A DNA stretch of 64,000 nt from Cyanobacteria bacterium P01_A01_bin.123. Lineage in GTDB: Bacteria; Cyanobacteriota; Cyanobacteriia; Phormidesmidales; Phormidesmidaceae. Below the pieces are notes generated by a model. That model was given only the letters and a program-made list of their open reading frames with translations, searched no databases and was not told the origin of the DNA. Of this stretch, positions 45,013 to 63,441 are shown one piece after another. The stretch covers positions 15,327 through 79,326 of the forward strand of contig JBCBZT010000038.1 of assembly GCA_039815185.1 (NCBI GenBank). Direction: 5' to 3'. The translations under genes were made by a program, and so were the position numbers. The first letter of the stretch is position 1; the number at the start of each line of letters is the position of its first letter.

Positions 45013-46233
45013 ATGTTCAGAAAACCGTTTCGATCTATTGCCTCCAGATTCGCGATCGCAGCCCTAACTTGCTTACTATGCATCTTTAGTTCGGCGTTTG
45101 TGTCGAGTGCGATCGCCCATGCGCTGGGTCAAAGCTACCTCTATTTTCATATTGGGGAAACGGCTGTCGAGACGCGCGTTGAGATGACCGTCCGCGATCT
45201 CAATGAGGTGCTAGGGCTGGGTTGGCCTGCCAACAAGAAGGTTCGCGACAGTGACATTGAGCCCCACCTTGAGCAGATCAAAGCCTACGTATCAGACAAC
45301 TTGGCGGTTGGTAGCGAATCCCAAACCTATGACCTGGTGTTTCAGCAACATAGTTTTTTGAACACCACGTTTGCTCAGTTTTTGCAGCTGCGCTATGTCG
45401 TGGAAGGGTTTCAAGCCTTACCCGATTCCCTGGGGATCACCTATGACGTGTTCTTAGCTGAGAAGCCGCAGCATACCAATCTGGTGCTAATTGAACAGAA
45501 CTGGAAGACGGGTACGTTTGCCAATGAATCGAATGCATCGCTGATTTATGCCGATCCTGGTCAAGCCCAAACCCTAGATATTTCTGGTGGCAGTGTGCTG
45601 CAGGGGGTTTTCGGTGTGGTGAGGCTGGGAGTAGGACACATCCTCAGTGGCATTGACCATGTGCTGTTTTTGGCGGCGCTGCTGCTGCCGTCGGTATTCT
45701 GGCGAGAAGCAGCGGATTGGAAACCTGTGGGCAAATTGGGTACGCCATTTGTGCGGGTGCTCAAGCTTGTGACGGCTTTTAGCGTGGTTCACACCCTGGC
45801 CCTGGGTTTGGGCTTGCTGCAAGTGGTTGCGGTGCCGCTGCGTTTAGTAGAGTCGGTCACGGCTGCGGCTATTGGCTTAGCTGCTGTAGAGATTTTTTAC
45901 CCCGTTTTTAAGGGTTGGATATGGTTCATTGTTGCTGCCTTTGCTCTATTCCATGGGCTTGGCATTACGGATGAATTGATTCAGAACGGAGCCATGAGTC
46001 AGTATCTCCCGCTTTCGCTGCTGGGTTTCAACTTAGGCATTGAGATCGGTCAAATCGTGATTGTCGCTGTGGCGGTACCGCTGCTTTATTTATTGCGTAC
46101 CCAGCGGTTGTATCCCCGATATGCGATGCCGGCAGGGGGTGCCTTGCTGGGAGCAATGTCGCTCTACTGGTTCATTGAGTATGCCTTTAACGTCAATATT
46201 CGAGTTTTACCTTTTATTCAGGGGTTGTTCTAG
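45013..46233 (+). CDS. HupE/UreJ family protein
   Basis: AIAH signal end, GVGHILSGIDHVLFL, TAFSVVHT, LFHGLG, GFNLGIEIGQ. Confidence 0.85.
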   Translation: MFRKPFRSIASRFAIAALTCLLCIFSSAFVSSAIAHALGQSYLYFHIGETAVETRVEMTVRDLNEVLGLGWPANKKVRDSDIEPHLEQIKAYVSDNLAVGSESQTYDLVFQQHSFLNTTFAQFLQLRYVVEGFQALPDSLGITYDVFLAEKPQHTNLVLIEQNWKTGTFANESNASLIYADPGQAQTLDISGGSVLQGVFGVVRLGVGHILSGIDHVLFLAALLLPSVFWREAADWKPVGKLGTPFVRVLKLVTAFSVVHTLALGLGLLQVVAVPLRLVESVTAAAIGLAAVEIFYPVFKGWIWFIVAAFALFHGLGITDELIQNGAMSQYLPLSLLGFNLGIEIGQIVIVAVAVPLLYLLRTQRLYPRYAMPAGGALLGAMSLYWFIEYAFNVNIRVLPFIQGLF

Positions 46234-46267: not shown

Positions 46268-47476
46268 ATGTTGACTTTTACTCAAACTCCCATGACTCGC
46301 AATGCTATGACCGCCTCGCTGCCTTTACAAACGCGAGTCTTATCCGTTGAAGATATCCGCTCCATTATTGAGTACGTGGGGCTAGATGCTCTGATGGATG
46401 AGATGATTGCACGGCTGACTGAGGCGTTTGAGTGCTTTGATCCGTCGGAGACTGTTGTTCCCGTACGTACGGGATTTAGCTACGAGCAACCCCATGTCGG
46501 GCTAGTGGAGTGGATGCCGCTGTTTCAAAAGCATCAACAAATTGTCGTAAAGGCGGTGGGCTACCATCCCCAAAACCCGAGTTTGCATAATCTACCGACG
46601 GTGCTTTCAACGGTCTCAGCCTACGACCCGACGTCGGGCCATTTATCTGCCCTGATGGACGGTACATTTCTGACAGCGCTAAGGACAGGGGCGGCTTCGG
46701 CGATCGCGAGTCGGTATCTTGCCAACCCCAATAGTCGCGTGTTGGGGCTGATTGGGGCCGGGGCGCAGGCCGTCACCCAGGTGCATGCCCTCTCTCGCTG
46801 CTTTGAGTTAGAGCAGATACTCATCTGCGATCGCGATCCAGCCGTCAGCCAATCCTTTGCCAATCGGGTGGCCGATCTGCATCTGGGTTCTCTGGCGATT
46901 CGGCGGGCTCATAGGGCTGAGATTATAGCCACCGCAGATATTCTCTGCACAGCCACATCTGTGGATGTGGGGGATGGGCCAGTCTTTGCCGATCAAACCT
47001 CAAAGCCTTGGCTGCACATTAATGCCGTAGGCGCTGACTTCCCCGGCAAGTTTGAGATCCCGTTGAGTTTGTTGGAACGCAGCTTTGTCTGCCCTGATTT
47101 CCGGGCGCAGGCCGTTCAAGAAGGGGAGTGTCAGCAGCTCAGCGAGCTTGAGATTGGGCCTGAGCTGTTTGAAGTAGCGCAGCATCCTAACGCGTATCAG
47201 CGATACCAGCATCAGCTCACCGTGTTTGATTCCACCGGATTCGCCCTGGAAGATCAGGTGGCAATGAACATGCTGCTGGACTATGCCACTGAACTCCAAA
47301 TTGGTACTTGGCTTTGTTTAGAGAGTGCTTCAGCCGAGGTCAAAAATCCCTACAGCTTTGTCAACGAAGGGATCTCATCCTCCCTTTCTAAAGGGGAGGT
47401 GCCGCAGGCGGAGGGATGCTCATCGGTCGTCACCCTGTCGCAACAAAGCATGACAACTCCCCCAGTCCATCTGTAA
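46268..47476 (+). CDS. Ornithine/lysine cyclodeaminase family protein
   Basis: LTALRTGAAS, IGAGAQA, HINAVGAD, FDSTGFALED. Confidence 0.88.
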   Translation: MLTFTQTPMTRNAMTASLPLQTRVLSVEDIRSIIEYVGLDALMDEMIARLTEAFECFDPSETVVPVRTGFSYEQPHVGLVEWMPLFQKHQQIVVKAVGYHPQNPSLHNLPTVLSTVSAYDPTSGHLSALMDGTFLTALRTGAASAIASRYLANPNSRVLGLIGAGAQAVTQVHALSRCFELEQILICDRDPAVSQSFANRVADLHLGSLAIRRAHRAEIIATADILCTATSVDVGDGPVFADQTSKPWLHINAVGADFPGKFEIPLSLLERSFVCPDFRAQAVQEGECQQLSELEIGPELFEVAQHPNAYQRYQHQLTVFDSTGFALEDQVAMNMLLDYATELQIGTWLCLESASAEVKNPYSFVNEGISSSLSKGEVPQAEGCSSVVTLSQQSMTTPPVHL

Positions 47477-47500: not shown

Positions 47501-48649
47501 ATGGATTTTTCTTGGTCAGACGAACAACTCGCTTTTAAGCAACGCGTGATTGAGTTTGCGCAGGAAAACTTGAATGGCGACACCCTCGAACGGGACTACC
47601 ACGGCAAATTCTCTTGGGAGAACTGGCGCAAATGCGCTGAGTTTGGCATTCAGGGCATGTGTATGCCAGAGGACTACAGCAACTCCCCCGCCCTCGATAT
47701 CATGACGGCGGTGCTGGCCATGGAGGGGATGGGCTACGGCTGTGAAGACAACGGCCTGACGCTGGCCCTCAACGCCCAAATGTGGACGGTGCAGATTTTG
47801 CTGTTGCAGTTTGGTACGGACGCGCAAAAACAGCGCTATCTGTCAAGGCTTTGTGGGGGGGAATGGATCGGGGTGCACGCGCTATCAGAACCGAATGCCG
47901 GGTCTGATGTGTACAGTCTTAAAACCCAGGCGGATAAATGTGAGGGGGGGTATCGCCTCAACGGGCGCAAAAAGTTTGTCACCTGTGCGCCCATCTGTGA
48001 CTTGGCGCTGGTGTTTGCCACCCTTGACCCGAGTTTGGGGAAGTGGGGCGTGACGGCCTTCTTAGTGGAGCGCACCTCCCCTGGGTTTTCGACTGGCCCA
48101 GTCAAAGACAAGATGGGGCTACGCACCACTCCCTTTGGAGAAATCTTCTTTGAAGACTGTTTTGTACCCGAAGAGAACCGTTTGGGCCCAGAAGGGGCCG
48201 GTTTTAGCTTTTCCCACAATTCGCTGGAATATGACCGCTGCTTTAACCTGGCCAGTGAGCTAGGCACCATGGAGCGGCAGTTAGAAAAAACCGTGGCCTA
48301 CGCCAAATCGCGAGAGCAGTATGGTCAGCCGATTGGTAAGTTTCAATCGGTCTCGAATCGGGTGGCCGATATGAAACTACGACTGGAGACGGCGCGACTG
48401 CTGCTTTATAAAGTGGCCTGGCTGAAAGACCGGGGACAACCCGCCATGATGGAGGCGGCGCTGCTGAAGCTTTACCTGAGTGAATGTTTTGTGGCCTCCG
48501 GGCTAGATGCGGTGCGGATTCACGGCGGTAACGGCTATCTCACGGAATATGAGGTCGAACGCGACCTGCGCGATGCCATTGGCGGGGTGATTTATGCCGG
48601 CACCTCAGATATTCAGCGCAACATCATTGCGCGATCGTTGGGACTTTAA
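47501..48649 (+). CDS. Acyl-CoA dehydrogenase family, aminoacyl-PCP dehydrogenase-like (PltE/RedW/AnaB type)
   Basis: LSEPNAGSD, KMGLR, REQYGQPIGKFQ, IYAGTSDIQR; sits beside stand-alone A and PCP genes. Confidence 0.85.
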   Translation: MDFSWSDEQLAFKQRVIEFAQENLNGDTLERDYHGKFSWENWRKCAEFGIQGMCMPEDYSNSPALDIMTAVLAMEGMGYGCEDNGLTLALNAQMWTVQILLLQFGTDAQKQRYLSRLCGGEWIGVHALSEPNAGSDVYSLKTQADKCEGGYRLNGRKKFVTCAPICDLALVFATLDPSLGKWGVTAFLVERTSPGFSTGPVKDKMGLRTTPFGEIFFEDCFVPEENRLGPEGAGFSFSHNSLEYDRCFNLASELGTMERQLEKTVAYAKSREQYGQPIGKFQSVSNRVADMKLRLETARLLLYKVAWLKDRGQPAMMEAALLKLYLSECFVASGLDAVRIHGGNGYLTEYEVERDLRDAIGGVIYAGTSDIQRNIIARSLGL

Positions 48650-48663: not shown

Positions 48664-50301
48664 ATGCTTTACCTGCTGTCACAAATTCTCGATCGCTCGG
48701 CTGAGCAGTTTCCTGACCATGATGCCTTTCGCTGCGACGGTCAGGGGATTACCTATGGCGACCTGTTACGGCGGGCGAATGGACTGGCCCATTGGCTGAT
48801 TGAGCATGGGGTACAGCGAGGCGATCGCGTCGGCATCTATCTCAGCAAGAGCTTAGAAACGGCGATCGCGGTCTATGGCATCTGGAAAGCTGGGGCGGCT
48901 TATGTCCCACTAGACCCCAGTGCGCCGATTGCCCGTACCGCCTATGCCATTAACCACTGCGGCATTCGTCATCTAATTACGCAGAGATCGAAGCGATCGC
49001 GTCTACCAGATTTATTGCAGGCCGGGGCGAATGGCCATTCGCCCCTACGGTATGTGGTGGGACTGCCCGACAGCTTTGAACTGGATCATCCGATTACCCG
49101 CTGCGACTGGGCGGCGATTCCCCCCAGCGATACGCCGCCAGCCGTGCGAGTGATGGAGCAAGACTTGGCCTACATCATGTATACCTCTGGCTCCACGGGC
49201 ACACCTAAGGGGATCATGCACACCCATCGCAGCGGCTTGAACTATGCCCAAATGGCTGCTCACATCTACGGCCTAAATCACAGCGATCGCTTGGGGAACC
49301 ACTCGCCCCTGCACTTCGACATGTCCACCCTCGACTATTTTTCAGGGCCGCTGGTGGGAGCCACTACGGTGATCATCCCGGAAGCCTACACCAAAATGCC
49401 CGCTAGCCTATCCCAACTGGTGCAAGACGAAGCGCTAACGATTTGGTACTCGGTGCCCTTTGCCTTGATTCAGCTCTTGCTGCGCGGGGTGCTAGCAGAA
49501 CGCGACTTGAGTTCACTGCGTTGGGTGCTGTTTGGCGGTGAACCCTACCCGGCTAAATACATGTATGCCCTGATGGATCAGCTACCCCAGGCCCGCTTTA
49601 GCAACGTCTATGGCCCAGCCGAAATCAATCAGTGCAGCTATTTCCATGTGCCTCCCCTAGCGGCGGGCGACCCGGTGCCTAAAGACGTTGCCCCCATCGG
49701 TCAAATTTGGGTTAACGCTGAAGAACGGGTTTTAGACGATGCGGATCAGCCCGTATCACCCGGCGAAATCGGTGAGTTGGTGGTGCGTACCCCCACCATG
49801 ATGGCGGGCTATTGGCAGCAGCCTAACCTGAATGAGCGGGCCTTCTACCGTTGCCCAGTTGCCAATCAAACTGCCGTGTTTTACCGCACAGGGGATTTAG
49901 TGCTGCAGCAACCCGACGGCAACTATCAGTTCATCGGTCGCAAAGACCGCCAGATTAAGACGCGGGGCTATCGCGTTGAGCTGGACGAGGTAGAAGCAGC
50001 ATTGGTTGAACACCCCCTCGTGGAAGAAGCGGCGGTCTACGCCGTGCCCTACGAAGCTGGCAGCCACCAGATTGAAGCCGCTGTGATTTTGAAACCGGAT
50101 GTCGCCCCAGATGTCGTTTTAGACGAAGCCGACCTGAAACGCCAGATGGCCGAGCGACTGCCCGCCTACGCGGTGCCTCAGCAAATCGCGATCGCAGAGA
50201 CATTCCCCCGCACCACCAGCGGCAAAATCGATCGCCGAACTTTACAAAATCAAGCCCTAGCCCGCCAACAGTCACCCCCCGTAGAAACTCCCGTCGGCTA
50301 A
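48664..50301 (+). CDS. Stand-alone adenylation domain (prolyl-AMP ligase-like)
   Basis: YTSGSTGTPKG, FDMS, YRTGD, TTSGKIDR; manually read code DMLYLGVQCK. Confidence 0.88.
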   Translation: MLYLLSQILDRSAEQFPDHDAFRCDGQGITYGDLLRRANGLAHWLIEHGVQRGDRVGIYLSKSLETAIAVYGIWKAGAAYVPLDPSAPIARTAYAINHCGIRHLITQRSKRSRLPDLLQAGANGHSPLRYVVGLPDSFELDHPITRCDWAAIPPSDTPPAVRVMEQDLAYIMYTSGSTGTPKGIMHTHRSGLNYAQMAAHIYGLNHSDRLGNHSPLHFDMSTLDYFSGPLVGATTVIIPEAYTKMPASLSQLVQDEALTIWYSVPFALIQLLLRGVLAERDLSSLRWVLFGGEPYPAKYMYALMDQLPQARFSNVYGPAEINQCSYFHVPPLAAGDPVPKDVAPIGQIWVNAEERVLDDADQPVSPGEIGELVVRTPTMMAGYWQQPNLNERAFYRCPVANQTAVFYRTGDLVLQQPDGNYQFIGRKDRQIKTRGYRVELDEVEAALVEHPLVEEAAVYAVPYEAGSHQIEAAVILKPDVAPDVVLDEADLKRQMAERLPAYAVPQQIAIAETFPRTTSGKIDRRTLQNQALARQQSPPVETPVG

Positions 50302-50352: not shown

Positions 50353-50658
50353 ATGACCCCAACCCAGCCTATCCCTGCCAATCCCCAAGCAACGCCTCCA
50401 GAAGGTTTAGATCATCAGCAGATTCTCACGCAGTACATCACCGATGAATTGCTGAATGGGCGCATGCAGGTGGAGGTGGATGATGACTTGCTCGGTGGCG
50501 AGATCATCGACTCGCTGGGGATGATGTGGTTGGTTGCTTTTATCGAGGAAACTTTCGGCGTCAGCGTTCCTCTAGAAGACATTACGATCCAGAATTTTCG
50601 CACCATCGAGACGATTCAAGCCTACGTGCAGCGGAGGGAGAACCATGGTGCTGGATAA
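50353..50658 (+). CDS. Stand-alone carrier protein (PCP/ACP)
   Basis: GEIIDSLG phosphopantetheinyl Ser; IEETFGV. Confidence 0.88.
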   Translation: MTPTQPIPANPQATPPEGLDHQQILTQYITDELLNGRMQVEVDDDLLGGEIIDSLGMMWLVAFIEETFGVSVPLEDITIQNFRTIETIQAYVQRRENHGAG

Positions 50659-53600
50659 TCATCTGCTATCCCCCCCCTCAACCTCCCATCCATCTGCGTC
50701 TGGAGGAAACGGCACAGTTGCGCCTATCAGTCAGCAGATCGAAGCCCTGGCTTCAAAGTCTAATTTGACCGTGGCTCAGCTCCTGCTTTGGCTGGGGCAA
50801 AAGCTGCACCCGGCGGATCCGCTCTACAACATGGTGTTTAGCTTCACCATTGGCGGCGAGATTGACCCTTTCCACTTTCAGCAGGCGTTTCAGGCGTTGG
50901 TTAACCGCTGCGATGTGCTACGGCTGACAATTACTGAGGTTGACGGGGTACCCCATCAGTCCGTGTCTCCGGTACTGGATTATCGCCTCCCCTGTCTAGA
51001 TTTTTCGACCGCAGCAGATCCGCAAGCCTTGGCACAGCAGTGGATCCGCAATCGTGCTACCTGCGCGTTAGACCTATCCATCAGCTTGTTTGATGCGGCA
51101 TTGCTAAAGCTTGGGTCGAATCAGTTCATTTGGTACCTCAATCAGCACCACCTGAGCACTGATAACTGGTCAGTATCGCTGATTTATCGGCAGTTACAGG
51201 CTGACTACGGGCGATCGCTGGCGGGTACCCTAGCCATTGCCTCCAAAATCCCAGCCTACCTGCCCTATGCAGCAGCCCAAGCAGAACCGCCATCGCCCCG
51301 GCAGCAAAAAGCCATCCGCTATTGGCAACAAAAGCGAGAAGATTTACCGCCCCCTGTCCCCCTCTACGGTCAAACTTCCAAGTCCCTTTCGACCCGCACC
51401 CAACGTACTTACTGCGAATTGGGGATGGCCCGATCTCAAGCCCTGCGAGCTCTGGCGGCGACTCCCGAAGCGCGATCGCTTTCCGTACATCAGTCCCAGT
51501 TCAATCTGTTTTTGACCCTGCTGTTCGCCTATCTCTATCGCATCAGCGGTGAACCTGCATTGGCGATCGCATGCCCGTCCCATAACCGCCCCACCCCGGC
51601 CCTTAAGGAAACCCCTGGGCTGTTTATTGAGCTGTTTCCGCTCCAGGTTGAGATTACGCCCGACGAAACCTTTGCGTCCCTACTTAAAAAAGTGGCGCGG
51701 GAGTCTACGGCATTTCTGCGCTACGCCCAGGCGGGGATTAGCCATCACGCCGTCGATCGCAACCTGAATGTGGTGATGAGCTACATCAACGTCACCTTCC
51801 CCGATTTCCACGATATGCCTGCCCAGACGGATTGGGTTCATGCAGATGCTGGCGACGCTCAACATCATTTGCGACTGGAAGTGCATGACTTTGATGCCAC
51901 GGGTAATTTTACGGTGCAGTTCGATTTCAACGCTGATCTGATCTCTGCGGCTCAACAACAGTGCGCACCCGAGCAGTTTTGTAAGCTGCTAGATGCCTGG
52001 TTAGCCAACGGCCAGCAGCGGATTGCCACGGTGGATATCTTGGCTGACGCCGAGCGATCGCTGATTGCAGCTCCCGATCCAACACCGATCGCAGCGGCCA
52101 CTACTTCAACCCGGCCCCAAACTTTAGTCGAACGCTTCCAACAGCAGGTTGCCCATGTCCCCAACCAAACGGCGGTGGTATGTGAAACGCAACACCTGAC
52201 CTATGCACAGCTAGAGGCTGAAGCTAATCAGCTCGCCCATTACCTGGTCAAGCAAGGGGTTAGTCCAGGCACCACAGTGGGGCTGTTGATGACGCGTTCT
52301 CTATCGATGGTCGTGGCCATCTTGGGCGTGCTCAAGGCGGGTGCGGCCTATTTACCCATTGATCCGGCGTATCCAGCAGAGCGGACTGCGTTCATGGTGG
52401 CAGACGGTCAGGTAGCGGTTTTGCTGACGCAGCAGGCATTGGTGGAGAAGGTAAGTGAACTGCTGCCCTCACCCCCGGCCCCTCTCCCTGGGGTAGAGGG
52501 GAGTCGATCCAATGCTGTTTCCCTCTCCCCCAGGGAGAGGGTTAGGGAGAGGATGTTTCACGTGGACGACCTGCAGATACGGGTGATTAGTCTTGAAGCA
52601 CATTCCCAGGCGATCGCGCAAGAATCCACCACAGCGCCTGATGTGGCCTTACGGGCTGAGGGTTTGGCCTACATCCTCTACACCTCTGGGTCAACGGGGC
52701 AGCCGAAAGGGGTGATGGTGGAGCATCGCAACGTCCTGGCTATGCTGGGCGGATTTGAACAGACTGCCCCTACCGGAGAAACGTTGCGGGGAACGGCAAT
52801 GTGTTCCTATGGGTTTGACGTCTCGGTTTGGGAGCTGTTTTCAAATCTGTGCTTTGGTGGCACGGTGCATCTGGTGCCCCCAGATGTGGTCACCAGTCAC
52901 GATCGCTTTGCTCAGTATCTTGTGGCTCATGACATCACCAGCGCCTACATTCCCCCAGCCCTGCTGCGTACCGTCATTGACGTGCTGGAGCAGGAAAATG
53001 ACGCGATCGCGCTAGATCGCATTTTGGTTGGTGTTGAACCGATTCAGCAGGGTCTACTACAACGCTATCGGCAGCGGATTCCCCAGTTGCGCATCGTCAA
53101 TGGCTATGGCCCCACGGAAACCACTATTTGCGCCACGTTTCATTTATTTGAGACAGCCACAGATCTCCAGGCTAATACCCCCATCGGCAAGGCAATACCA
53201 GGGTATGAGGTGTATCTCGTGAACTCCCAGGGACAACAGGTGCCCATCGGCGTGAAGGGAGAAATCGTCATTGGAGGGGCAGGGTTGAGTCGGGGCTATT
53301 TGCATCGATCGAAGTTGATGGCCCAGCGGTTTATTGACAACCCCTTTGGCCACGGGAAACTCTACAAGACAGGCGATCAGGCCCGCTATCTGCCCGATGG
53401 CAACCTGGAATTTTTGGGACGCCTAGACCACCAAGTGAAGGTGCGGGGCTTCCGGGTTGAACTAAGCGAAGTAGAAACCGCGTTAAATCAGCATCCTCAC
53501 ATTCAGCAAGCGGTTGTGATTGCCCAGGAAACCACCTCAAACAGCCAAACCCTCGTAGCCTATTTGGTGGCCCCAGACGCCTCACCCACTAGCAGCGAGA

Positions 53601-55492
53601 TCCGCGATGCGCTCAAACAGAAGCTGCCAGCCTATATGGTGCCGAGTGTCTTCATCCTTTTGGATGCCTTGCCGCTGACCCCTAATGGCAAAGTCGATCG
53701 CCGTCGATTGTCCTCTACAGACTACGCCCAGCGGGAACGGCTCGGGGCAGATGCAGGCTATGTGGCTCCCAAAAACGAGTGGGAAACTTACCTGGTAGGG
53801 CTATGGGGTCAGTGCCTACGAGTGGCATCGGTCGGCATTCACGACAACTTTTTTGACCTGGGGGGCGACTCTATCACGGCGATTCAAATTGCGGCGCAGG
53901 CCACGGAGGCGGGTCTTGCCCTATCGCCCCAGCAAATTCTGCAACAGGCCACCATCGCCAGGCTAGTAGCGCAGATGAATCCCGCGATCGCGACCGCACA
54001 GTCCCATGCCGATACGTCGGGCACTATCCCCCTAACCCCGATACAGCAAGCCTTTTTTGAGCAAAATCTCACCGATGCTCACCATTGGAACCAGACCCTG
54101 CTGTTGGATGTAGCGTACCCCCTTGATCCGCAGGTGCTAGAAGCTGCCGTGCAGCGTTTGTTGCAACACCACGCTGTTCTGAATTTCCGGTTCGTGTCGG
54201 GAGAGTCTGGGTGGCAGCAGTTGCCGTCGGATCCAGAATTGGGTGGCAGGGGGGCAGCCCAGACCTTGCAATCACCCTCTAAGGCATCGTTCCAGTACTT
54301 AAATCTCTCCCATCAATCAACGGCGGAACAGGATCAGTCGATCGCGATCGCAGAAGCTGAGCTGCAAACCAGCCTCAATTTGGCAGTGGGTGATTTAGTG
54401 CGAGTCGCGCTGTTTAACCTCGGGGGCGATCGCCCCAACCGTCTGCTGTTGATTATTCATCACCTAGTGGTTGATGGGGTCTCTTGGCTGGCACTGCTGG
54501 ATCACCTGGAAATCTTCTACCGCCAGCTACAGGGGGAAGCTGTCTCCCTACCGCTACCCACCACACCTTTCGAGACCTGGTCAACAGGATTGGTAGCAGC
54601 AGTCTCATCAGGTGCGTTCCGATCAGAATTGGACTATTGGTTAAAATCCGCTCAGACAACGCTGAAGTCTTTATCGCTGGATGCCCCTGCTGCAGGTGAT
54701 AACACCGTTGCCTCAACCCAAACCATCACCACTATTTTGGATAGCGACCAAACGCGATCGCTCCTAAAAGAGATTCCCAAGCTTGCCCGCGCCCAAGTCA
54801 ACGAAGTGTTGTTGACGGCGCTGATGCTGACATTCTGTGAAGAATCAGACCCAACCGCTTTGCTGGTGGATATGGAAAGCCACGGGCGCGAGGAATCCGT
54901 CGTCCCTGGCGTCAATCTAGTCCGCACGGTGGGATGGTTTACCACGGTATTTCCGCTGCTGTTGAGCGTATCACCGCAGTCAGATTTGGGCGAAAAGCTC
55001 CAAGCCGTCAAAGCACAGTTACGCAGTGTACCGAGCAACGGCATCGGCTACGGACTACTGCGCTATTTGGATGACGATGTCAGGGTTAAGGAACAGTTAC
55101 AGGCGTTGCCCCAAGCAGAAATCTTGTTTAACTATCTCGGTGATTTGGAAGGGTTACTCCCCCCAAACTCCAGGTTTAAGTTGGCCCGTGAACTGTGCTT
55201 ATCTCGCAGTTCCAAAGGGCAACGGCGATACCAGCTTGAAGTCAACGCAGCAGTTGTTGACGGGCAATTGCAAGTGGCCTGGTCTTACAGTAAACGAGTT
55301 CACTCGCGCGAGACGGTTCAGGGTTGGGCGGATGGGTTGATGACCGGACTGCGATCGCTGATGGCTTATTATCTGTCGTCTGAATCTAGCCAAGAAAATA
55401 CCTACACCCCAGTCGATTTCCCCCTTGCCAATCTCAATGCTCAGAAGCTTGGCAAAATAGCCGCCCTGTTGAACAAACGCGATCGCCCCTAA
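50645..55492 (+). CDS. NRPS module C-A-T-E
   Basis: HHLSTDN, YTSGSTGQPKG, YKTGD, GGDSI, E motifs HHLVVDGVSW and RTVGWFTT, COM donor TPVDFP. Confidence 0.93.
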   Translation: MVLDNHLLSPPSTSHPSASGGNGTVAPISQQIEALASKSNLTVAQLLLWLGQKLHPADPLYNMVFSFTIGGEIDPFHFQQAFQALVNRCDVLRLTITEVDGVPHQSVSPVLDYRLPCLDFSTAADPQALAQQWIRNRATCALDLSISLFDAALLKLGSNQFIWYLNQHHLSTDNWSVSLIYRQLQADYGRSLAGTLAIASKIPAYLPYAAAQAEPPSPRQQKAIRYWQQKREDLPPPVPLYGQTSKSLSTRTQRTYCELGMARSQALRALAATPEARSLSVHQSQFNLFLTLLFAYLYRISGEPALAIACPSHNRPTPALKETPGLFIELFPLQVEITPDETFASLLKKVARESTAFLRYAQAGISHHAVDRNLNVVMSYINVTFPDFHDMPAQTDWVHADAGDAQHHLRLEVHDFDATGNFTVQFDFNADLISAAQQQCAPEQFCKLLDAWLANGQQRIATVDILADAERSLIAAPDPTPIAAATTSTRPQTLVERFQQQVAHVPNQTAVVCETQHLTYAQLEAEANQLAHYLVKQGVSPGTTVGLLMTRSLSMVVAILGVLKAGAAYLPIDPAYPAERTAFMVADGQVAVLLTQQALVEKVSELLPSPPAPLPGVEGSRSNAVSLSPRERVRERMFHVDDLQIRVISLEAHSQAIAQESTTAPDVALRAEGLAYILYTSGSTGQPKGVMVEHRNVLAMLGGFEQTAPTGETLRGTAMCSYGFDVSVWELFSNLCFGGTVHLVPPDVVTSHDRFAQYLVAHDITSAYIPPALLRTVIDVLEQENDAIALDRILVGVEPIQQGLLQRYRQRIPQLRIVNGYGPTETTICATFHLFETATDLQANTPIGKAIPGYEVYLVNSQGQQVPIGVKGEIVIGGAGLSRGYLHRSKLMAQRFIDNPFGHGKLYKTGDQARYLPDGNLEFLGRLDHQVKVRGFRVELSEVETALNQHPHIQQAVVIAQETTSNSQTLVAYLVAPDASPTSSEIRDALKQKLPAYMVPSVFILLDALPLTPNGKVDRRRLSSTDYAQRERLGADAGYVAPKNEWETYLVGLWGQCLRVASVGIHDNFFDLGGDSITAIQIAAQATEAGLALSPQQILQQATIARLVAQMNPAIATAQSHADTSGTIPLTPIQQAFFEQNLTDAHHWNQTLLLDVAYPLDPQVLEAAVQRLLQHHAVLNFRFVSGESGWQQLPSDPELGGRGAAQTLQSPSKASFQYLNLSHQSTAEQDQSIAIAEAELQTSLNLAVGDLVRVALFNLGGDRPNRLLLIIHHLVVDGVSWLALLDHLEIFYRQLQGEAVSLPLPTTPFETWSTGLVAAVSSGAFRSELDYWLKSAQTTLKSLSLDAPAAGDNTVASTQTITTILDSDQTRSLLKEIPKLARAQVNEVLLTALMLTFCEESDPTALLVDMESHGREESVVPGVNLVRTVGWFTTVFPLLLSVSPQSDLGEKLQAVKAQLRSVPSNGIGYGLLRYLDDDVRVKEQLQALPQAEILFNYLGDLEGLLPPNSRFKLARELCLSRSSKGQRRYQLEVNAAVVDGQLQVAWSYSKRVHSRETVQGWADGLMTGLRSLMAYYLSSESSQENTYTPVDFPLANLNAQKLGKIAALLNKRDRP

Positions 55493-55558: not shown

Positions 55559-56422
55559 ATGACCACCCATCACCCCACCCTCCCCATCACCCCACCTCCC
55601 CAACCCAAACCCTGCTGGCGCGTCAAGCTGGCCCAGACCGTCCTCATGGGGCGCGATGAGTCGGCAGGGCGGCTGCGGCAGATCACTCAAGCGATCGCGG
55701 TCGGCATACTCGGCAAAAAAGCCCTAGGCGAGTACATGGAGCATGTCTACGAAACCCACGCCAGTGCGTATGATCCCAGCCATTATCAGCTGGATTGCGA
55801 GGCCAAGATTCTGCCGTATCTGTCGAAATATCATGCCAGCGGTAAGCTTTTGAGCGCGTTTTGTGGTCAGGGACGAGAGGCCAGGGTCTTTGCCGATCAG
55901 GGGTTTGAGGTCACCGGAATTGATGCGAGTCCAGCCATGATCGACGGGGCGATCGCCTATGCCCAAGCCTCTGGATTTAACGCCCGGTTTGAGCGGGCTG
56001 ATTTTTTGCAGTACACCCCAGAGACGCCCTATGACGTGATCTACCTGTCGCCCTGGATGTATGGCACGTTTCCCGATCCGGCAGATCGAATGCAGTTGCT
56101 GCGGCACTGTGGGGCGATGCTTGCCCCTGGGGGAGTGATTGTCATGTCTTACATTCACCTCGTACAACCCGATCGGCTGTGGGAGAAAGCGCGTCATTGG
56201 CTTGCTTTGAGTGCGGCCACCCTGTCTGGCAGCGCGTGGCGACCCCGGTTTGGCGATCGCTTCTATGTGGGCATTTTCCATCACTTTTTTGGGCCGGGGG
56301 AACTGGCGGCAGAAGTTAACGCGGCAGGGCTGGAAATTGTGGAACAGCAGGAATCGGCCAATGGCTTATTTGATTTCTGCCTCTTATCAGCAACCGGGAG
56401 GGATAGCCATGCAGCTAGATAA
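55559..56422 (+). CDS. Class I SAM-dependent methyltransferase
   Basis: SAFCGQGRE, VTGIDAS, YDVI, LAPGG. Confidence 0.8.
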   Translation: MTTHHPTLPITPPPQPKPCWRVKLAQTVLMGRDESAGRLRQITQAIAVGILGKKALGEYMEHVYETHASAYDPSHYQLDCEAKILPYLSKYHASGKLLSAFCGQGREARVFADQGFEVTGIDASPAMIDGAIAYAQASGFNARFERADFLQYTPETPYDVIYLSPWMYGTFPDPADRMQLLRHCGAMLAPGGVIVMSYIHLVQPDRLWEKARHWLALSAATLSGSAWRPRFGDRFYVGIFHHFFGPGELAAEVNAAGLEIVEQQESANGLFDFCLLSATGRDSHAAR

Positions 56423-59339
56423 CGTCGCCGATATTTATCCCCTCTCCCCGATGCAGCAGGGGATGCTATTTCATGCTTTGAGTGCGCCTCATTCCGGCGT
56501 GTACGTCGAGCAATATAGCTGCAAGCTCCAGGGTAATCTGAAAATTCCGGAGTTTCAGCAGGCGTGGCAACAGGTGATCGATCGTCAACCCGTGCTCCGA
56601 ACTGCCTTTCTGTGGGAAGGCCTAGATGACCCCCTCCAGGTGGTGCGCCAGCAGGTGGAGGTTCCGTGGGAAATCGAAGATTGGCGATCGCATCCTCCAA
56701 CCCAACAGGTGGAACGTCTGGCTGAGTTTTTGCAGCGCGATCGCAGATTGGGCTTTGATCTGCTGCAAGCGCCGATTTCGCGCTTTCGACTGATCCAGCT
56801 CCGGGACGACACGCACCAGTTCATCTGGAGCTTTCATCACCTCTTGGCCGATGGTTGGTCTATCCCCATCATTTGGCAAGACGTACTCACCTGTTATCGG
56901 GCCAACTGTCACCGAGTGTCCCCAGCCCTGCCGCCCCTGCATCCCTATCGAGACTATATTGCTTGGCTACAGGCCCAAGATTTGACGGCGGCTGAACCCT
57001 TTTGGCGATCGCAGCTCCAAGGCTTTTCAGACCCCACCCCCCTGCCTGCAGCCAGCACTAGCCACGACATTGGGTCTCAACTCTATCGCCAACAGACTAA
57101 ATCTCTCACGCCAGCCCTTGATGATGCCTTGCAAGCCCTAGCGCGATCGCAGCGCCTAACGCTAAACACCTTAATTCAAGGGGCATGGGCACTTTTGCTG
57201 AGTCACTACAGCAGTCACGATCAGGTCACCTATGGCGCAGTCATGTCGGGGCGACCCGCCGCGCTCAAAGGCGTCGAAACTATGGTGGGCTTATTCATCA
57301 ACACGCTGCCCGTACGCGTTTCCATTCAGCCCGAGCAGTTGCTTATCCCCTGGCTGCAGGCCCGACAGCAGCAGCTCCTCGAATTACGTCAATACGAAGC
57401 TACTCCCCTCAGCGACATTCAGCGTTGGAGTGATGTCCCTGCTGGTAGCCCGCTGTTTGAAAGCATTGTGGTGTTTGAAAACTACCCGACTAATGCGCCC
57501 CCGGATCTGGGGTTTGAGATTCGCGATCGCGATTATCGAGAGCAAAGCAACTATCCCCTGGCACTGCTGGTGGTTCCGGGTGACACATTGGAATTCCTGC
57601 TGCTGTACGATCCGGGGCGATTTGAAGACGCTGCGATCGCCCGCCTGCTGGATCATCTGGAGAGCTTACTGATCGCCTTTGTTGAGCACCCCCAAGCTAC
57701 CCTTGCCGATCTGCCCCGCCTTAGCCCTGCTGACCAACAGCAGCTCGTTACCTGGCAGCAAACTAACTATCCCCAAGATGATGTACCAGATGATGAAGCG
57801 CATGGCTGCATCCACCACTTGATTGAAGCACAGGTCAAACGCACCCCCGGTGCCCCAGCGGTCACCTTTGCAGACCAAACCCTAACCTACAGCGAGTTAA
57901 ATCAGCAGGCCGATCAACTGGCGGATGCGCTGCGATCGCAGGGGGTGACCTGCGGCGATCGCGTCGCCCTCTGCCTCAACCCCTCCCTAGACCGGATCAT
58001 CAGCATCCTGGCCGTCCTCAAAACCGGAGCCGCCTACGTTCCACTAGATCCAACCTATCCTGCGGCTCGACTTGACTATTGTTTGCGAGACACGACTCCT
58101 CAGGTGGTGCTGACCCACCACTCGGTGGCGCTGCCAGATACCGGGATTCCCCGACTGTACCTCGATGATGCGGATGAGAAGGGGACGCGATTGATCGCGT
58201 CCCTACAAATCCCTTCCCCTGCTTCCCCCACTCCCCCACTCCCCCACTCCCCATCCCCCCATCCCGACAACCTCGCCTACATCATCTACACCTCCGGCTC
58301 CACCGGCCAACCCAAAGGCGTCATGGTCACCCATCGCAACCTAGTGCATTCCACCACGGCGCGATCGCAGGTTTACCCTGAACCCGTCGGGCGTTTTCTG
58401 CTGCTCTCCTCCATTGCGTTTGATAGCTCCGTCGCCGGGATCTTTTGGACGCTCTGCCAAGGCGGCACGATCGTACTGCCGCCTGACCGTATCGAACAAG
58501 ATCTACAACAGCTTGCCACCCTGATTGCCCAGCAGCAAATCACCCACACGCTATGTGTTCCCACACTCTATAGCCTGCTGCTGGATGCCGCCGAACCCCG
58601 GCATCTTGCCAAGTTGCATACCGTAATCGTCGCGGGCGAAGCCTGCCCCCGCAGCTTGGCCCAACAGCACTACGCCAAGCTCCCCGCCACCGACCTCTAC
58701 AACGAATATGGCCCCACCGAAGCCACCGTCTGGTGTACGGCACACCGCGTCCACCCCGAACTAACCCCCGGTCCTATCCCCATCGGCACCCCCATCCCCA
58801 ACACCCAAATCCATCTGCTAGATCCAACGCTAAAGCCCGTCCCCATCGGCGCGATTGGCGAACTCTATGTTGGTGGTAAAGGCGTTAGCCAAGGGTATTT
58901 GAACCAACCGGAGCGAAATGCGGCAGCGTTTATCAAGGTAGAAGGCAGAAGGCAGAAGGCAGAATCTAAGATCCAAAATCCAAAACCCAAAATCCAAAAT
59001 TCCCCTCTCCCCATCCCCCCCTCTCCCCATCCCCCCCTCTCCCCATCCCCCCCTCCCTCCCCCCTCTACAAAACCGGAGACCTCGCCCGCTACCGCGCTG
59101 ATGGCACATTGGAATGGCTTGGGCGCTGCGATCGCCAGGTGAAAATTCGGGGCTATCGGATTGAGCTGGGTGAGATTGAGGATGCGCTGCGACAGGATGG
59201 GGCGGTGCGGGAAGCGGTGGTTGTGGCCCAATCCATGGCTCCACCGCCAGATAGCGTGGACAGTCTAATGGCGGCTCTGACGGCCTTAGCACCCGAGCGG
59301 GTAGAGGCGTTACTCGCTGCAGTTGGGGAGGGGCGCTAG
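56409..59339 (+). CDS. NRPS C(DCL)-A core, ending after motif A8; His-type code
   Basis: IYPLSPMQQG, HHLLADGWS, A3-A8 present; manually read code DSALIAEVW(K); no A9, A10 or T. Confidence 0.9.
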   Translation: MQLDNVADIYPLSPMQQGMLFHALSAPHSGVYVEQYSCKLQGNLKIPEFQQAWQQVIDRQPVLRTAFLWEGLDDPLQVVRQQVEVPWEIEDWRSHPPTQQVERLAEFLQRDRRLGFDLLQAPISRFRLIQLRDDTHQFIWSFHHLLADGWSIPIIWQDVLTCYRANCHRVSPALPPLHPYRDYIAWLQAQDLTAAEPFWRSQLQGFSDPTPLPAASTSHDIGSQLYRQQTKSLTPALDDALQALARSQRLTLNTLIQGAWALLLSHYSSHDQVTYGAVMSGRPAALKGVETMVGLFINTLPVRVSIQPEQLLIPWLQARQQQLLELRQYEATPLSDIQRWSDVPAGSPLFESIVVFENYPTNAPPDLGFEIRDRDYREQSNYPLALLVVPGDTLEFLLLYDPGRFEDAAIARLLDHLESLLIAFVEHPQATLADLPRLSPADQQQLVTWQQTNYPQDDVPDDEAHGCIHHLIEAQVKRTPGAPAVTFADQTLTYSELNQQADQLADALRSQGVTCGDRVALCLNPSLDRIISILAVLKTGAAYVPLDPTYPAARLDYCLRDTTPQVVLTHHSVALPDTGIPRLYLDDADEKGTRLIASLQIPSPASPTPPLPHSPSPHPDNLAYIIYTSGSTGQPKGVMVTHRNLVHSTTARSQVYPEPVGRFLLLSSIAFDSSVAGIFWTLCQGGTIVLPPDRIEQDLQQLATLIAQQQITHTLCVPTLYSLLLDAAEPRHLAKLHTVIVAGEACPRSLAQQHYAKLPATDLYNEYGPTEATVWCTAHRVHPELTPGPIPIGTPIPNTQIHLLDPTLKPVPIGAIGELYVGGKGVSQGYLNQPERNAAAFIKVEGRRQKAESKIQNPKPKIQNSPLPIPPSPHPPLSPSPPPSPLYKTGDLARYRADGTLEWLGRCDRQVKIRGYRIELGEIEDALRQDGAVREAVVVAQSMAPPPDSVDSLMAALTALAPERVEALLAAVGEGR

Positions 59340-59340
59340 C

Positions 59341-60714
59341 ATGGCACACATTGTCTGCGTTACGGGTGGGCTAACGGGGATGCTCAACGCCAGTTTGGCG
59401 TTGGTGCAGCAGCTCGCCCAGGCGGGGCATCGCATCACTTATGCTAGCCCTGCGGATTTGAGTGCCCCGGTGTCATCGCAAGGGATTGCTTATGTTCAGC
59501 TTGATCCTTGGGTATTTCAGCCCCAGGAACCCCCGCTCAGCCGTTGGCAAAAACTGCGCACACTGCGATCGCGCCAAAAGTGGGCCGTAGATATGTTGGG
59601 CGTACAAAACTTTGTGCCCGTGATGCAAGATCTAGCCCCCGACTTGCTACTGATCGACATCGAGATGCATCCCCATATTATGGCGGCGGTGATGCATCAG
59701 CTGCCAGTGGCCCTACTGTGTCCGTTTTTGTCGATTTGGCGGCGACCTAACTTACCCCCTATCCATACGAATATTGTGCCGGAGGAAGGTTGGCGCGGTC
59801 AGCGATTAGGGATTGCCTGGAACTGGCTGCGCTATGGCTGGCGCAAATGGAAAGAATCTCAGCGCGATCGCTGGCGGCGAGTGGGGCTGGATCACATCTC
59901 GGTGATGTACTGCTATGCCCGACAACTTGGCTATCCGGCCCGAGCCAGCTTTGGGTTTAACCAGTGGCTTGTGCCCTATCCCCACAGGCACCTTCCCATT
60001 CTCTGTCTTCATCCATTAGAGCTAGATTTGCCCCACGAGCCCCATCCATCCATGCGTTATTTGGGGCCAATGGTGCTCGAAAATCGTCAGGAATCAAGGG
60101 TTAAATCTATTACAAATAAGACCTTAGAGCAGATTTTTGATAACTGTCGCTCTGCAGGGCGATCGCTGATTTATTGCGGTTGTAGCAGCTTGGCGAAGGC
60201 GGATGGCCAGTTCTTGCGGCGAGTTATGGAAGCTGTGGCAGGTTGTCCCCAGTGGGATCTAGTTTTGGGACTGGGGGGACGACTGGATCCTGAGCAGTTA
60301 GGCGATCTTCCACCCAATGTGTATGCCTTTCGGTGGGCACCTCAGTTAACAGTGCTGCAACAGGCAAACTGCGCCATTATCAACAGCGGTTCTCACAGTA
60401 TTACGGAGTGTATTCACTACGGTGTGCCGATGCTGGTTTACTCGCTTAATCGTGCGGATCAAAACGGCAATGCGGCTCGAGTTAGGTATCACAGGCTGGG
60501 GATTGCAGGCGATCTAAGGCAGGACGATGCGGTACAGATGCGTCGTCATATCCAAGCCTTACTGACTAATCCGACCTATCAAGCAGGGGTAACTCAGATG
60601 CGCGATCGCTTCCGGCGCTATACCGATGAAGATCGGACGATACAGGTGGTTGAGAGCTTGCTGGGCACTCAGCGCGATCGCCGGGGAGACAGACAGCTAG
60701 AGGGAGTGATGTAA
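59341..60714 (+). CDS. GT1 (MGT/UDPGT-like) glycosyltransferase
   Basis: LAQAGHRITY; WAPQLTVL...GVPMLV...DQ..NAAR donor-binding box. Confidence 0.82.
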   Translation: MAHIVCVTGGLTGMLNASLALVQQLAQAGHRITYASPADLSAPVSSQGIAYVQLDPWVFQPQEPPLSRWQKLRTLRSRQKWAVDMLGVQNFVPVMQDLAPDLLLIDIEMHPHIMAAVMHQLPVALLCPFLSIWRRPNLPPIHTNIVPEEGWRGQRLGIAWNWLRYGWRKWKESQRDRWRRVGLDHISVMYCYARQLGYPARASFGFNQWLVPYPHRHLPILCLHPLELDLPHEPHPSMRYLGPMVLENRQESRVKSITNKTLEQIFDNCRSAGRSLIYCGCSSLAKADGQFLRRVMEAVAGCPQWDLVLGLGGRLDPEQLGDLPPNVYAFRWAPQLTVLQQANCAIINSGSHSITECIHYGVPMLVYSLNRADQNGNAARVRYHRLGIAGDLRQDDAVQMRRHIQALLTNPTYQAGVTQMRDRFRRYTDEDRTIQVVESLLGTQRDRRGDRQLEGVM

Positions 60715-62723
60715 TGCCAACGAAACAGGAATTGTCTCAACGGATTTCGGCCCTCTCGCCAAATCAACGGGCGGCCCTATTACAACAACTTCAGCAGCTT
60801 GGTATTGAGCGGCAGGTACCCTCTGGACAATCGGCGCAACGGTTAGTGGCCTATGTGGTTCTCCACGCTGATGTTGCCGAGCCGAATCTGCCAATTTTGC
60901 GGGACGCCCTTAAAGCAAAACTGCCCCACTACATGGTGCCAGCCGCCATTGTGCCACTAAAGAAGCTACCGCGCACTGCCAATGGCAAGGTTGATACGAA
61001 AGCCCTGCCTGCCCCCCAACCCGCAGCCCTCTCTGATCGAATCGCTGCCCCACGGAATTCAACGGAAACAACGCTAACTCAGATTTGGCGTGATGTTCTC
61101 CGGCTTGAAGCCATCGGCATCCACGACAACTTTTTTGAACTGGGGGGCGACTCCATCCTCAGCATTCAAATTGTGTCTAGAGCGCGGGAGGTTGGGTTGC
61201 GGTTGGCCCCCAGCCAACTCTTCGAGCAGCCCACCATTGCAGAACTGGCGGCTGTGGTCAATCTCGCGCCTGAGGTGGCTGCAACCCAGACAATTGTGAC
61301 TGGCTCTGTGCCCCTGACGCCAATTCAGCATTGGTTCTTTGAGCAGGCAATGGTAGCGCCTCACCAATGGCATCAGGCGATGATGTTTGAAGTGCCGCCT
61401 AGGGTATCTGGAGAGGTTGTTGAAAGGGCGATCGCAACCCTTTGGCACCACCACGATGCCCTTAGACTCTGCTTCAGCCAGGATTCAGCGGGTTGGCAGC
61501 AGGTCAATGCAGATGCCAGCGAACCCCCCTCGATTCAGCAAATTGATCTGGCCCATTTGAGTGATGCGGATCAAAGGGCAGCGGTTGCCCAGCACGGTAG
61601 TCATTTGCACGCGAGTATAAATTTGGCCTCTGGTGGCCTGATGCGGATGGCCCACTTTATCCGGGGGGCAAATCAACCCAGTTGGCTACTGCTTAGCTTG
61701 CATCACCTGGGGGTGGATACCGTGTCTTGGCAGATCTTGCAAAGTGATTTGGCCACGCTGTTAACCCAACCCAACCCATCTCTACCCGCCAAGACAACCG
61801 CCTTCAAAACCTGGGCCGAGACGCTCATTGCTCAAGCAGCTGGGCGACGTTCAGAAGCATCCTTTTGGTTTGAGCGAGTTGAGTCTCCGGCCATTGCTCT
61901 ACCGCGCGATTACCCTAATGCACCACCCGCTATTGAAGGGACTGCGCAGACCATCACCATCAGCCTCGATTCTGCAGATACCCATGCCCTGCTCCAGGCA
62001 GTACCCGCCGTCTACAACACCCAGATTAACGACGTCCTGCTAACAGCACTGACCCAGACGCTATTGCAGTGGGTGGATGCCCGCTCAGGCAGCGTTCGCA
62101 TTGAGGTAGAAGCCCACGGTCGTGAGGCAATCGCGGCTGGTGTAGACGTGTCCCGCACAGTGGGCTGGTTTACCACCACCTATCCCGTGACGTTAACGCT
62201 GACCGATGGCAACGACTGCGGTACAGCGTTGAAATCCGTCAAAGAACAGCTCCGCCAGATTCCCAATCGCGGTATTGGCTACGGCATGTTGCGCTATCTC
62301 GGTGATGACTTAACCCGTCGTCGCCTAGCGCAGGCTCCACCGTCCGAGGTGTTGTTCAACTACTTGGGCCAGCACAGTTCGATTCAACCCAACTCGGCTG
62401 GCGCAGGAGGTGGCATTCAAGCCATTCACGACATTGACATGGGCCAGCTCAGAGATCCGCGCAACCGCCGCAGCTACCTGCTAGAGGTGAATGCCTGGGT
62501 CGCCGACGGACGGTTGCAGCACAACTGGCGATACGACACGCAGATTTACGCCCCAGATACCCTAACGGCGATCGCGAACCGCTATCTCACTACTCTTAAA
62601 GCCATCATCGCTCACTGCACCACCACTGACAGCGGTGGCTTTACCCCCTCTGACTTCCCCGATACCGATTTCAGTCAGTCAGAACTGGACGCATTCATCG
62701 GTCAGCTCACCCAGGAGGCTTGA
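60714..62723 (+). CDS. NRPS docking helix - A C-terminal subdomain - T - E
   Basis: RISALSPNQRAALL, RLVAYVV, LPHYMVP (A9), NGKVD (A10), GGDSI, HHLGVDTVSW, EAHGRE, FTPSDFP. Confidence 0.9.
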   Translation: MPTKQELSQRISALSPNQRAALLQQLQQLGIERQVPSGQSAQRLVAYVVLHADVAEPNLPILRDALKAKLPHYMVPAAIVPLKKLPRTANGKVDTKALPAPQPAALSDRIAAPRNSTETTLTQIWRDVLRLEAIGIHDNFFELGGDSILSIQIVSRAREVGLRLAPSQLFEQPTIAELAAVVNLAPEVAATQTIVTGSVPLTPIQHWFFEQAMVAPHQWHQAMMFEVPPRVSGEVVERAIATLWHHHDALRLCFSQDSAGWQQVNADASEPPSIQQIDLAHLSDADQRAAVAQHGSHLHASINLASGGLMRMAHFIRGANQPSWLLLSLHHLGVDTVSWQILQSDLATLLTQPNPSLPAKTTAFKTWAETLIAQAAGRRSEASFWFERVESPAIALPRDYPNAPPAIEGTAQTITISLDSADTHALLQAVPAVYNTQINDVLLTALTQTLLQWVDARSGSVRIEVEAHGREAIAAGVDVSRTVGWFTTTYPVTLTLTDGNDCGTALKSVKEQLRQIPNRGIGYGMLRYLGDDLTRRRLAQAPPSEVLFNYLGQHSSIQPNSAGAGGGIQAIHDIDMGQLRDPRNRRSYLLEVNAWVADGRLQHNWRYDTQIYAPDTLTAIANRYLTTLKAIIAHCTTTDSGGFTPSDFPDTDFSQSELDAFIGQLTQEA

Positions 62724-62724
62724 T

Positions 62725-63441
62725 ATGGACAAGCAAAATATTGAAACGCTATATCCCCTAGCCCCGCTGCAGCAGGCATTTCTGTGGCACAGTCTACAAG
62801 CTTCGTCGCAAGCTGGCTTGTTGCACATGCGCTGTACGCTACGCGGTGAGCTTGACCCCGATCTGCTGCGACAAGCTTGGGAATTTGTCGTTAGCCAACA
62901 TCCCGTCCTACGCACCTCCGTTCACTGGGAGGCCGTCAAGCAACCCTTACAAGTCGTGGCCAAACAAGTCACTTTGCCTTGGGTACAGCTTGACTGGCGA
63001 GATCATAAAGACCCGCAGCAAGCGTTAACAGAATTTTTGGCCAACGATCGCGATCGCGGCTTTGACCTCACCCAAGCCCCGATCTCCCGTCTAGCTCTAA
63101 TTCGGCTCAGCGAAACCGACTCCGAGCTGATCTGGAGCTGCCACCACCTCACCCTAGACGGCTGGTCTGGTGCATTGGTGCTCAACCAGGTGCTCAACAC
63201 CTACGAAACCCTGCATCAAGGGAAACCCCCTGCGGACAAGCCTGCACCGACTTACCAAACCTACCTGCGCTGGCTCAAACAACAGAACGAAGCCACCGCC
63301 GCTACCTTCTGGAAAGAAACACTCCAAGGGTTTACGACACCCACCCCCCGCCCCGCAAGTGATCGAACGACACTCGCTCGTTGTTCCCAGCACGGCAACC
63401 CGATTCCGCTGTTGGGGCCACTGCGGCAGAAGCGACCGTGA
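62725..63441 (+). pseudogene. NRPS condensation domain, truncated near 63345
   Basis: LYPLAPLQQ, HHLTLDGWS, FWKETLQGF; homology is lost after TTPTP. Confidence 0.75.

Follow-up and report, generated by a model that had tools for sequence, protein, structure and literature searches.

Can an adenylation (A) domain that is encoded in two pieces, with a glycosyltransferase (GT) gene between them, serve a nonribosomal peptide synthetase (NRPS), and how would its pieces be brought together? The question is raised by a window of 64,000 nt from Cyanobacteria bacterium P01_A01_bin.123 (the whole stretch of DNA analyzed), in which an earlier note had read such a split as an organized operon rather than decay. 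The explanation that best accounts for the evidence is that the A domain of module 2 is naturally split and would be reassembled in trans through a recruited pair of docking helices, a reading to which we assign a probability of roughly 0.8 on the basis of sequence patterns and of analogy with known systems.

The cut in the module 2 adenylation domain

The first half of module 2 (56409..59339, forward strand) comprises a condensation (C) domain, the A core, the first part of the A small subdomain and a C-terminal helix-turn-helix. Pfam places Condensation at residues 7–447 and AMP-binding at residues 473–831, and finds no AMP-binding_C in 56409–59339. The A8 motif lies at nt 59136–59180 and the EAVVVA strand at 59211–59228, and a TAG codon closes the helical tail, leaving 50 residues between the end of the A8 region and the stop, with no methyltransferase match among them. 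The second half (60714–62723, forward strand) opens with another helix-turn-helix and continues with RLVAYVV (60840–60860), A9 (60921–60941) and NGKVD, which holds the A10 lysine (60981–60995), followed by a carrier (T) and an E-type domain; its AMP-binding_C match spans profile positions 25–76 of 76. The gene between them (59341..60714, forward strand) encodes a GT1-family (GT-B) glycosyltransferase (Pfam UDPGT/EryCIII-like_C), whose ATG at 59341 follows the half 1 stop after a 1-nt gap (the TTG at 59323 proposed by the ORF finder is not the likely start), and whose stop shares the TAATG at 60712–60716 with the ATG of half 2. The cut falls inside the small subdomain, after the EAVVV strand and ahead of the RLVAYVV strand, and the catalytic motifs are retained in both halves. 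Re-checking by ORF and Pfam analysis bore out the open reading frames, motifs and junctions described in the earlier note, as well as its placement of the cut in the A8–A9 region, which can be refined to a point preceding the RLVAYV strand. Specificity-code positions in both A domains of the cluster were counted by the GrsA numbering. The code of half 1 (DSALIAEVWK) is His-type and that of the upstream module 1 (DVWYLGGICK) is Met-type, and both are matched in the accessible part of PMC12283262.

Decay or an assembly error, leaving either a broken NRPS or one polypeptide restored by read-through or splicing, might be suspected from the downstream terminal gene, which is broken in the assembly, and from one relative (G453) whose half 1 is only a 326-aa open frame. 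Such an origin is nonetheless hardly credible, given that identical stops and new starts are present in 28 genomes, that the gap length modulo 3 varies in relatives (1374, 1442, 1417, and 1436 nt), that Rfam finds no match in 44000–64000, and that contigs from two studies cross both junctions. The crossing, which was assessed on contigs only, is seen in four of four runs, three of them belonging to a single study that may be the source and the fourth to a second study, whose contig shows 364 differences in 4.3 kb; none of the contig differences listed removes a stop, which speaks against the concern of the earlier note that the stops might be sequencing errors.

Conservation among relatives points in the same direction. 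A genome scan with the GT returned 11 loci, and a truncated C-A gene precedes the GT in all ten cyanobacterial ones, nine of which also show the second half, the remaining one being cut by a contig end. In the family to which one of the scan genomes belongs, the GT is found in 28 of 172 genomes, at 29 loci that include the ten cyanobacterial loci of the scan. Half 1 ends with A8, a helix and a stop at 28 of these 29 loci (26 plus 1, plus 1 on a second contig), the second half is seen at 27, the misses being contig edges, and a contiguous A domain is found at none, so that the three-gene architecture, whose presence elsewhere the earlier note had left to be checked, recurs with A1–A8 and A9–A10 on different open reading frames across 28 genomes. 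When the A core was used as the query, a close His-type ortholog (at least 64% identity) turned up in 27 GT genomes out of 28 but in 0 of the other 144, where His-type domains are only distant. The GTs of relatives with the same layout are 47–67% identical, and homologs of about 60% identity are named from Dapis and Crocosphaera; the records P0183 and P0313 bear the name of a cultured carrier, Leptolyngbya sp. PCC 7375. Moreover, the split survives rearrangement, with half 1 fused to module 1 in some loci and half 2 occurring as Asub-T-E, Asub-T-E-C-T-TE or Asub-T-TE. Because the GT genomes are kin, these counts are not independent, and they represent inheritance under selection rather than independent events. 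The system is absent from 400 other genomes sampled across the phylum, and is therefore patchy; a plasmid search gave no match. Conservation in 28 genomes, with hydrophobic positions kept in the flanking helices, upholds the claim of an organized split as opposed to decay: a split A domain with a conserved cut is a real and selected feature of a group of marine cyanobacteria.

The facing helices and a proposed reassembly in trans

The earlier note had described one helix at each facing terminus. Helices are present at both, but each looks like two, arranged as a helix-turn-helix. Half 1 ends in an acidic element of about 23 residues, the putative C-terminal docking element (59256..59324, forward strand), in which positions L47, L51, L62, and L63 (alignment A3) are hydrophobic in 28/28 and the net charge is negative in 28/28. 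Half 2 begins with a basic element of about 20 residues, the putative N-terminal docking element (60732..60791, forward strand), with the motif L..R[VI].ALS..QR..L...L; five of its positions are hydrophobic in 28/28, and its net charge is positive in 27/28. The helix residues are conserved, while the linkers beside them range from 6 to 34 residues in half 1 and from 5 to 54 in half 2. At scores of at least 5 bits, the head profile matches 10 N-termini among the 285 taken from unrelated NRPSs, against 12 of 3240 internal windows, an enrichment at such termini. The tail profile, which matches 11 of 296 C-termini (3 of them non-family, 8 family members having escaped the filter) vs. 14 of 3240 internal windows, shows little likeness to the C-termini of unrelated NRPSs. 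A single-sequence model of the tail, which is poor overall (mean pLDDT 53), contains two helices at pLDDT of about 70, and complex prediction with the two helix peptides alone scored 0.30 and 0.24, against a mark of 0.32 and with controls not folded, and so speaks neither for nor against pairing.

As far as sequence can indicate, the facing termini fit a docking pair, with helix-turn-helix elements of about 25 residues, conserved hydrophobic faces and opposite charges. According to the accessible text of the corresponding reports, split modules of trans-AT polyketide synthases (PKSs) are held together by helix-turn-helix docking pairs of about 25 residues (PMC9113145), and these four-helix-bundle (4HB) or "double-helix pair" docking domains, exemplified by VirA/VirFG and MlnD/MlnE (PMC9113145), resemble the putative helices described here in size, in their hydrophobic core and in charge complementarity. 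Docking by trans-AT PKS elements and by the three-helix PAX domains (PMC7973640) is also described at intramodular junctions (PMC9113145; PMC7973640), as here, and the likeness to the 4HB and PAX classes is one of described anatomy. Known docking pairs link whole domains (ACP/KS, KS/KR, PCP/C), whereas here the putative pair would close a cut within one subdomain, taking docking elements beyond their between-domain use.

In the reassembly model, half 1, with the C domain and the A core, would bind His and ATP, and half 2 would contribute the remaining A-domain elements (the RLVAYV strand, A9 and the catalytic lysine of A10) together with T-E. The acidic helix-turn-helix of half 1 would pair with the basic one of half 2, and the paired helices, carried on flexible linkers, would hold the pieces of the small subdomain together. 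Both docking elements would have been recruited from ordinary NRPS subunit-junction elements, and the GT, methyltransferase, sulfotransferase and membrane protein encoded in the gap at different loci would be separate accessory proteins. Speculatively, a segment running from the end of one NRPS gene through a GT gene to the start of the next NRPS gene could have landed in the loop, in which case a single insertion event would have brought both docking elements and the GT.

The principle of a split A domain is already published. In the accessible text of PMC11342130, the corallorazine proteins Crz1/Crz2 of Corallococcus coralloides are called the first such report, and Crz1.2, inactive alone, reaches almost full activity in a 1:1 mixture with Crz2. 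In both systems, a break between A8 and A9 places the A domain on two genes, the downstream protein opens with A9–A10 and T, and activity is expected only on mixing. As described there, Crz1 has an embedded type I N-methyltransferase at its end, whereas half 1 here is without an embedded domain; the Crz genes are adjacent, whereas 1–3 genes part the halves here; and the present system is set apart further, going by that description, by a cut that precedes the RLVAYV strand and by a helix-turn-helix at both ends. In the literature covered, outside which most subscription journals lie, we met with no account of this cut site, of docking helices placed within a domain or of non-adjacent A halves with 1–3 genes between them.

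The same precedent can be turned toward a different mechanism, in which reassembly would proceed mainly by strand complementation, the helices being leftovers or solubility aids. The cut parts neighboring strands of one small subdomain, which implies a native interface, and the accessible text of PMC11342130 credits Crz2 with giving only residues 1–65 to its A domain and names no docking domain for Crz1/Crz2. However, the helix residues are kept in 28 sequences as the linkers drift, their charges are complementary, and both helices are missing from a re-fused ortholog, and we regard complementation by strands as quite improbable.

That ortholog, P0389, a record without context that consists of one Logan contig, is a contiguous C-A-T-E protein of 1542 aa, 58% identical to half 1 and 55% to half 2, with a short loop devoid of either helix. 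In quick trees built from the best 120 protein matches to the A core, the split forms make up one clade of 62 rows (SH-aLRT 97), with contiguous His-type domains as outgroups; three sequences labeled "split" by error (P0348, P0349, and P0383) fall outside it. P0389 nests within the split clade (SH-aLRT 97–100), and an AU test on a 26-row quick tree rejects its placement outside the split forms (p 8.5e-64). The simplest reading of these sequences is one split followed by one re-fusion, with helices only in the split state; the nesting of a helix-less P0389 indicates that the helices track that state. Trans reassembly through docking helices, as the earlier note had proposed, is hence favored by inference from conservation in 28 genomes and from the opposite charges, and is strengthened by the helix-less P0389 and by the Crz1/Crz2 precedent (PMC11342130, accessible text); the role that the note gave to the GT does not share in this support.

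If the halves complement each other, the family would offer a natural, lineage-wide cut site in an A domain with its own short docking pair, and engineers could part substrate selection (the C-A core) from the carrier and epimerase without linker design, with P0389 as a ready natural control. Automated annotation would call module 2 broken, and this family of marine cyanobacterial clusters may hence be overlooked.

The loop and the genes in the gap

The a8–a9 region is described as a tolerant site tied to tailoring enzymes in interrupted A domains (Lundy et al., PMC8341866; PMC11355689), which in the accessible text of these sources are single polypeptides with M, Ox, MOx or KR domains embedded; the words "split," "glycosyl," and "amidotransferase" are absent from the main text of PMC8341866. 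Here, unlike in interrupted A domains, the polypeptide is divided and each tailoring enzyme has a gene of its own. Among the control NRPSs, those large in-cis inserts that could be classified come after the LVAY strand (13 of 639 motifs and 2 of 105) and are of methyltransferase type, with 164 of 639 and 21 of 105 motifs left "unclear" by the regex classifier and two further motifs flagged as "before" the strand that proved on inspection to be regex misses. L097 and P0362 were similarly flagged as having A10 owing to a linker motif. The control set derived from the half 2 head profile search is biased and dominated by multi-module NRPSs. In the metagenome control, a scan of 77 mostly unrelated loci with the half 1 tail and generic patterns, none of 105 motifs ends in a helix and a stop after A8, and one stops early without a helix.

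Module 1 in the window has an A domain that is contiguous across the same loop. In 12 of 19 wide loci, module 1 carries an in-cis insert of about 350 residues there, which resembles WbuX N-acetyl-sugar amidotransferases (TIGR03573, 1.9e-30, below cut-off). An embedded auxiliary domain, the mark of an interrupted A domain, is thus found in module 1 of these relatives but not in module 2, with its three separate open reading frames, and the insert in the one and the cut in the other indicate that the lineage uses this loop twice. No WbuX-like interruption of an A domain was found described in the literature covered, which leaves most subscription journals aside. Such an interrupted domain points to new tailoring chemistry.

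The GT has a GT-B fold with a C-terminal nucleotide-sugar motif (AF2 pLDDT 93), and its best Foldseek match is the macrolide glycosyltransferase 2iya. Its first strand starts at residue 3 and it ends in a normal terminal helix, with no docking extensions. In OleD-type O-glycosyltransferases, an N-terminal His is catalytic. The GT shares its fold and donor-binding half with macrolide-type GT1 enzymes (OleD/OleI), but lacks their catalytic His: aligned to the oleandomycin GT, it has Met in that column, and among 81 GT homologs, His occupies the canonical N-terminal catalytic column in 1 and Glu108 is present in all 81. The missing His and the invariant Glu108 suggest a non-canonical enzyme, perhaps N-glycosylating, or one whose role has changed. 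A His-less GT1 family, too, hints at new tailoring chemistry.

The GT sits in the gap at every locus with both halves visible, at −4 to +2 nt from half 1 in all 11 loci of the GT scan. It is not alone there: extra genes are present in 14 of 29 loci, so that 1–3 genes separate the halves. In nine loci, about 730–810 nt or more precede the GT (a class I methyltransferase by Pfam in two tested), a 569-aa multi-pass membrane protein also lies before it in one locus, with another like it at a second locus, and in five loci about 800–930 nt follow it (a Stf0 sulfotransferase by Pfam in two tested). A Bacteroidota genome (G809) has a cluster of cyclodeaminase, dehydrogenase, ligase, NRPS1 with a WbuX-like insert, and GT, the last followed by a transposase-like ORF; the 20 kb read there show no split module. 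For the GT group at 40% identity (P0237–P0270), the genomic context covered comes from four genomes out of 251 in a single Bacteroidota family. The earlier note had put forward the GT as a possible third structural subunit. Since it is a complete stand-alone GT-B enzyme without docking extensions, since the gap content varies, and since a GT is found in the Bacteroidota cluster although the stretch read there shows no split module, that role is unlikely and an accessory enzyme is favored, although its fixed place and tight coupling keep the third-subunit reading alive.

The fixed position of the GT, the WbuX-like domain that the same loop holds in cis in module 1, and the non-canonical GT active site could also be taken to mean that the gap is a plug-in site, i.e., an interrupted A domain at the level of genes, in which the docking-helix split would let separate tailoring enzymes (the GT, exchangeable for the methyltransferase or sulfotransferase) dock and modify the T-bound His or peptide. 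If true, this would be the counterpart in trans of an interrupted A domain, with the module 1 insert as its fused version. We consider it unlikely, in view of the ordinary termini of the GT, of a gap that also carries a multi-pass membrane protein, of the Bacteroidota GT without a split module and, as a weak test, of the lack of any GT fused in a longer protein among 5108 candidates of 801–2285 aa. With module 2 reassembled in trans and the GT as an accessory enzyme, the GT would most likely attach its sugar to an intermediate or to the product, the His imidazole being a possible acceptor.

The surrounding pathway

The genes upstream, all on the forward strand, outline a candidate starter. A cyclodeaminase (46268..47476) is nearest to lysine cyclodeaminase (5gzi, E 8e-92; 2e-39 against the ornithine cyclodeaminase 1u7h), and is followed by a PigA/RedW-like prolyl-carrier dehydrogenase (47501..48649; NF053553 6.4e-119 and NF045652 8.6e-107, both below cut-off), a stand-alone adenylation enzyme (48664..50301; Pfam; PDB 6o6e, E 1.2e-80), whose best single-domain match is L-proline--[prolyl-carrier protein] ligase, and a free carrier protein (50353..50658; Pfam PP-binding). 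Equivalents of the genes of pyrrolyl-carrier starter cassettes (PigA/RedW dehydrogenase, Pro ligase, and carrier) are thus present, but unlike in those cassettes, the lysine-cyclodeaminase-like gene suggests that the starter derives from pipecolate, the set as a whole implying an oxidized starter derived from pipecolate or proline. Module 1 (50645..55492; Pfam C-A-T-E) comes next, followed by a class I methyltransferase (55559..56422; Pfam) that overlaps the start of half 1. E domains end both modules. The 5′ part of a terminal C-T-TE gene (62726..63441) breaks near 63350 at the contig end, and its remainder lies on another contig (C68); because this gene is broken in the assembly, the pathway may be inactive in the source strain.

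A promoter/terminator scan yielded counts no better than chance (5 vs. 11.7; 20 vs. 18.3), and no RNA data set was listed as a carrier. Neither a description of this cluster nor a product of it was found in the literature covered, most subscription journals lying beyond that coverage. The gene content makes a heteroaryl-acyl-Xaa-His product likely, one that bears a sugar and perhaps a sulfate or methyl group. The cluster opens with a membrane protein that has a HupE/UreJ domain (45013..46233, forward strand; Pfam PF13795), which occupies the same position in three further loci (L129, L132, and L136), and from which one might guess at a metal-binding role for the product.

Insertions in the adenylation domains

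The adenylation domain of module 1 is uninterrupted in the window (50645..55492), but in related loci it is interrupted in cis by a WbuX-like PP-loop domain of about 350 aa (for example at L006:3772-5086), which is Cys-rich at its start, carries an SGGKDS motif and is inserted in the same loop in which module 2 is split. This interruption was found in 12 of the 19 wide loci (L004, L005, L006, L007-L009, L126, L129, L133, L134, L139 and L144), one of which belongs to a Bacteroidota genome. No amidotransferase-type interrupted adenylation domain was found in the literature searched, whose coverage excluded most subscription journals, and the WbuX-like interruption possibly represents an undescribed family of interrupted adenylation domains. 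In the adenylation core of module 2, a C-rich low-complexity repeat (59003-59067) encodes an in-frame Pro-rich insertion immediately ahead of A7, and similar insertions occur in module 1.

Variants of the split module and its glycosyltransferase

The contiguous C-A-T-E orthologue P0389 is nested within the clade of split adenylation domains and is a probable natural re-fusion. The early-branching P0398 is split, and its longer C-terminal tail bears a third acidic helix repeat, which makes it look more like the C-terminal docking segment of an ordinary NRPS. The split cluster is present twice in one genome, in divergent versions (G524:C159 and G524:C133) whose glycosyltransferases share 58% and 48% identity with that of the window (59341-60714). 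Across this glycosyltransferase family the canonical N-terminal His is missing (present in 1 of 81), while Glu108 is invariant and His110 frequent. At L126, the gap holds a 569-aa multi-pass membrane protein (4719-6428, minus strand) with unnamed Atlas neighbours and weak structural likeness to HTTM-domain proteins.

Ends of the cluster

The terminal C-T-TE gene gives way to unrelated GC-rich sequence (63350-64000) with no second copy in the genome, and its remainder lies at the start of another contig (G000:C68), apparently with an additional frame change. A misjoin or repeat is likely at this break, because contigs from two runs likewise stop at 63347-63349, with 63480-64000 lying on a contig of its own at low depth. 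In the related locus L003 (13385-15886), the terminal C-T-TE protein is devoid of an adenylation domain.

The cluster product could be a metal chelator. Upstream of the Met- and His-type modules lie a HupE/UreJ gene and a pipecolate- or pyrrole-type starter cassette (45013-50658). An ORF resembling, by eye, a TonB receptor was seen upstream of the Bacteroidota cluster.
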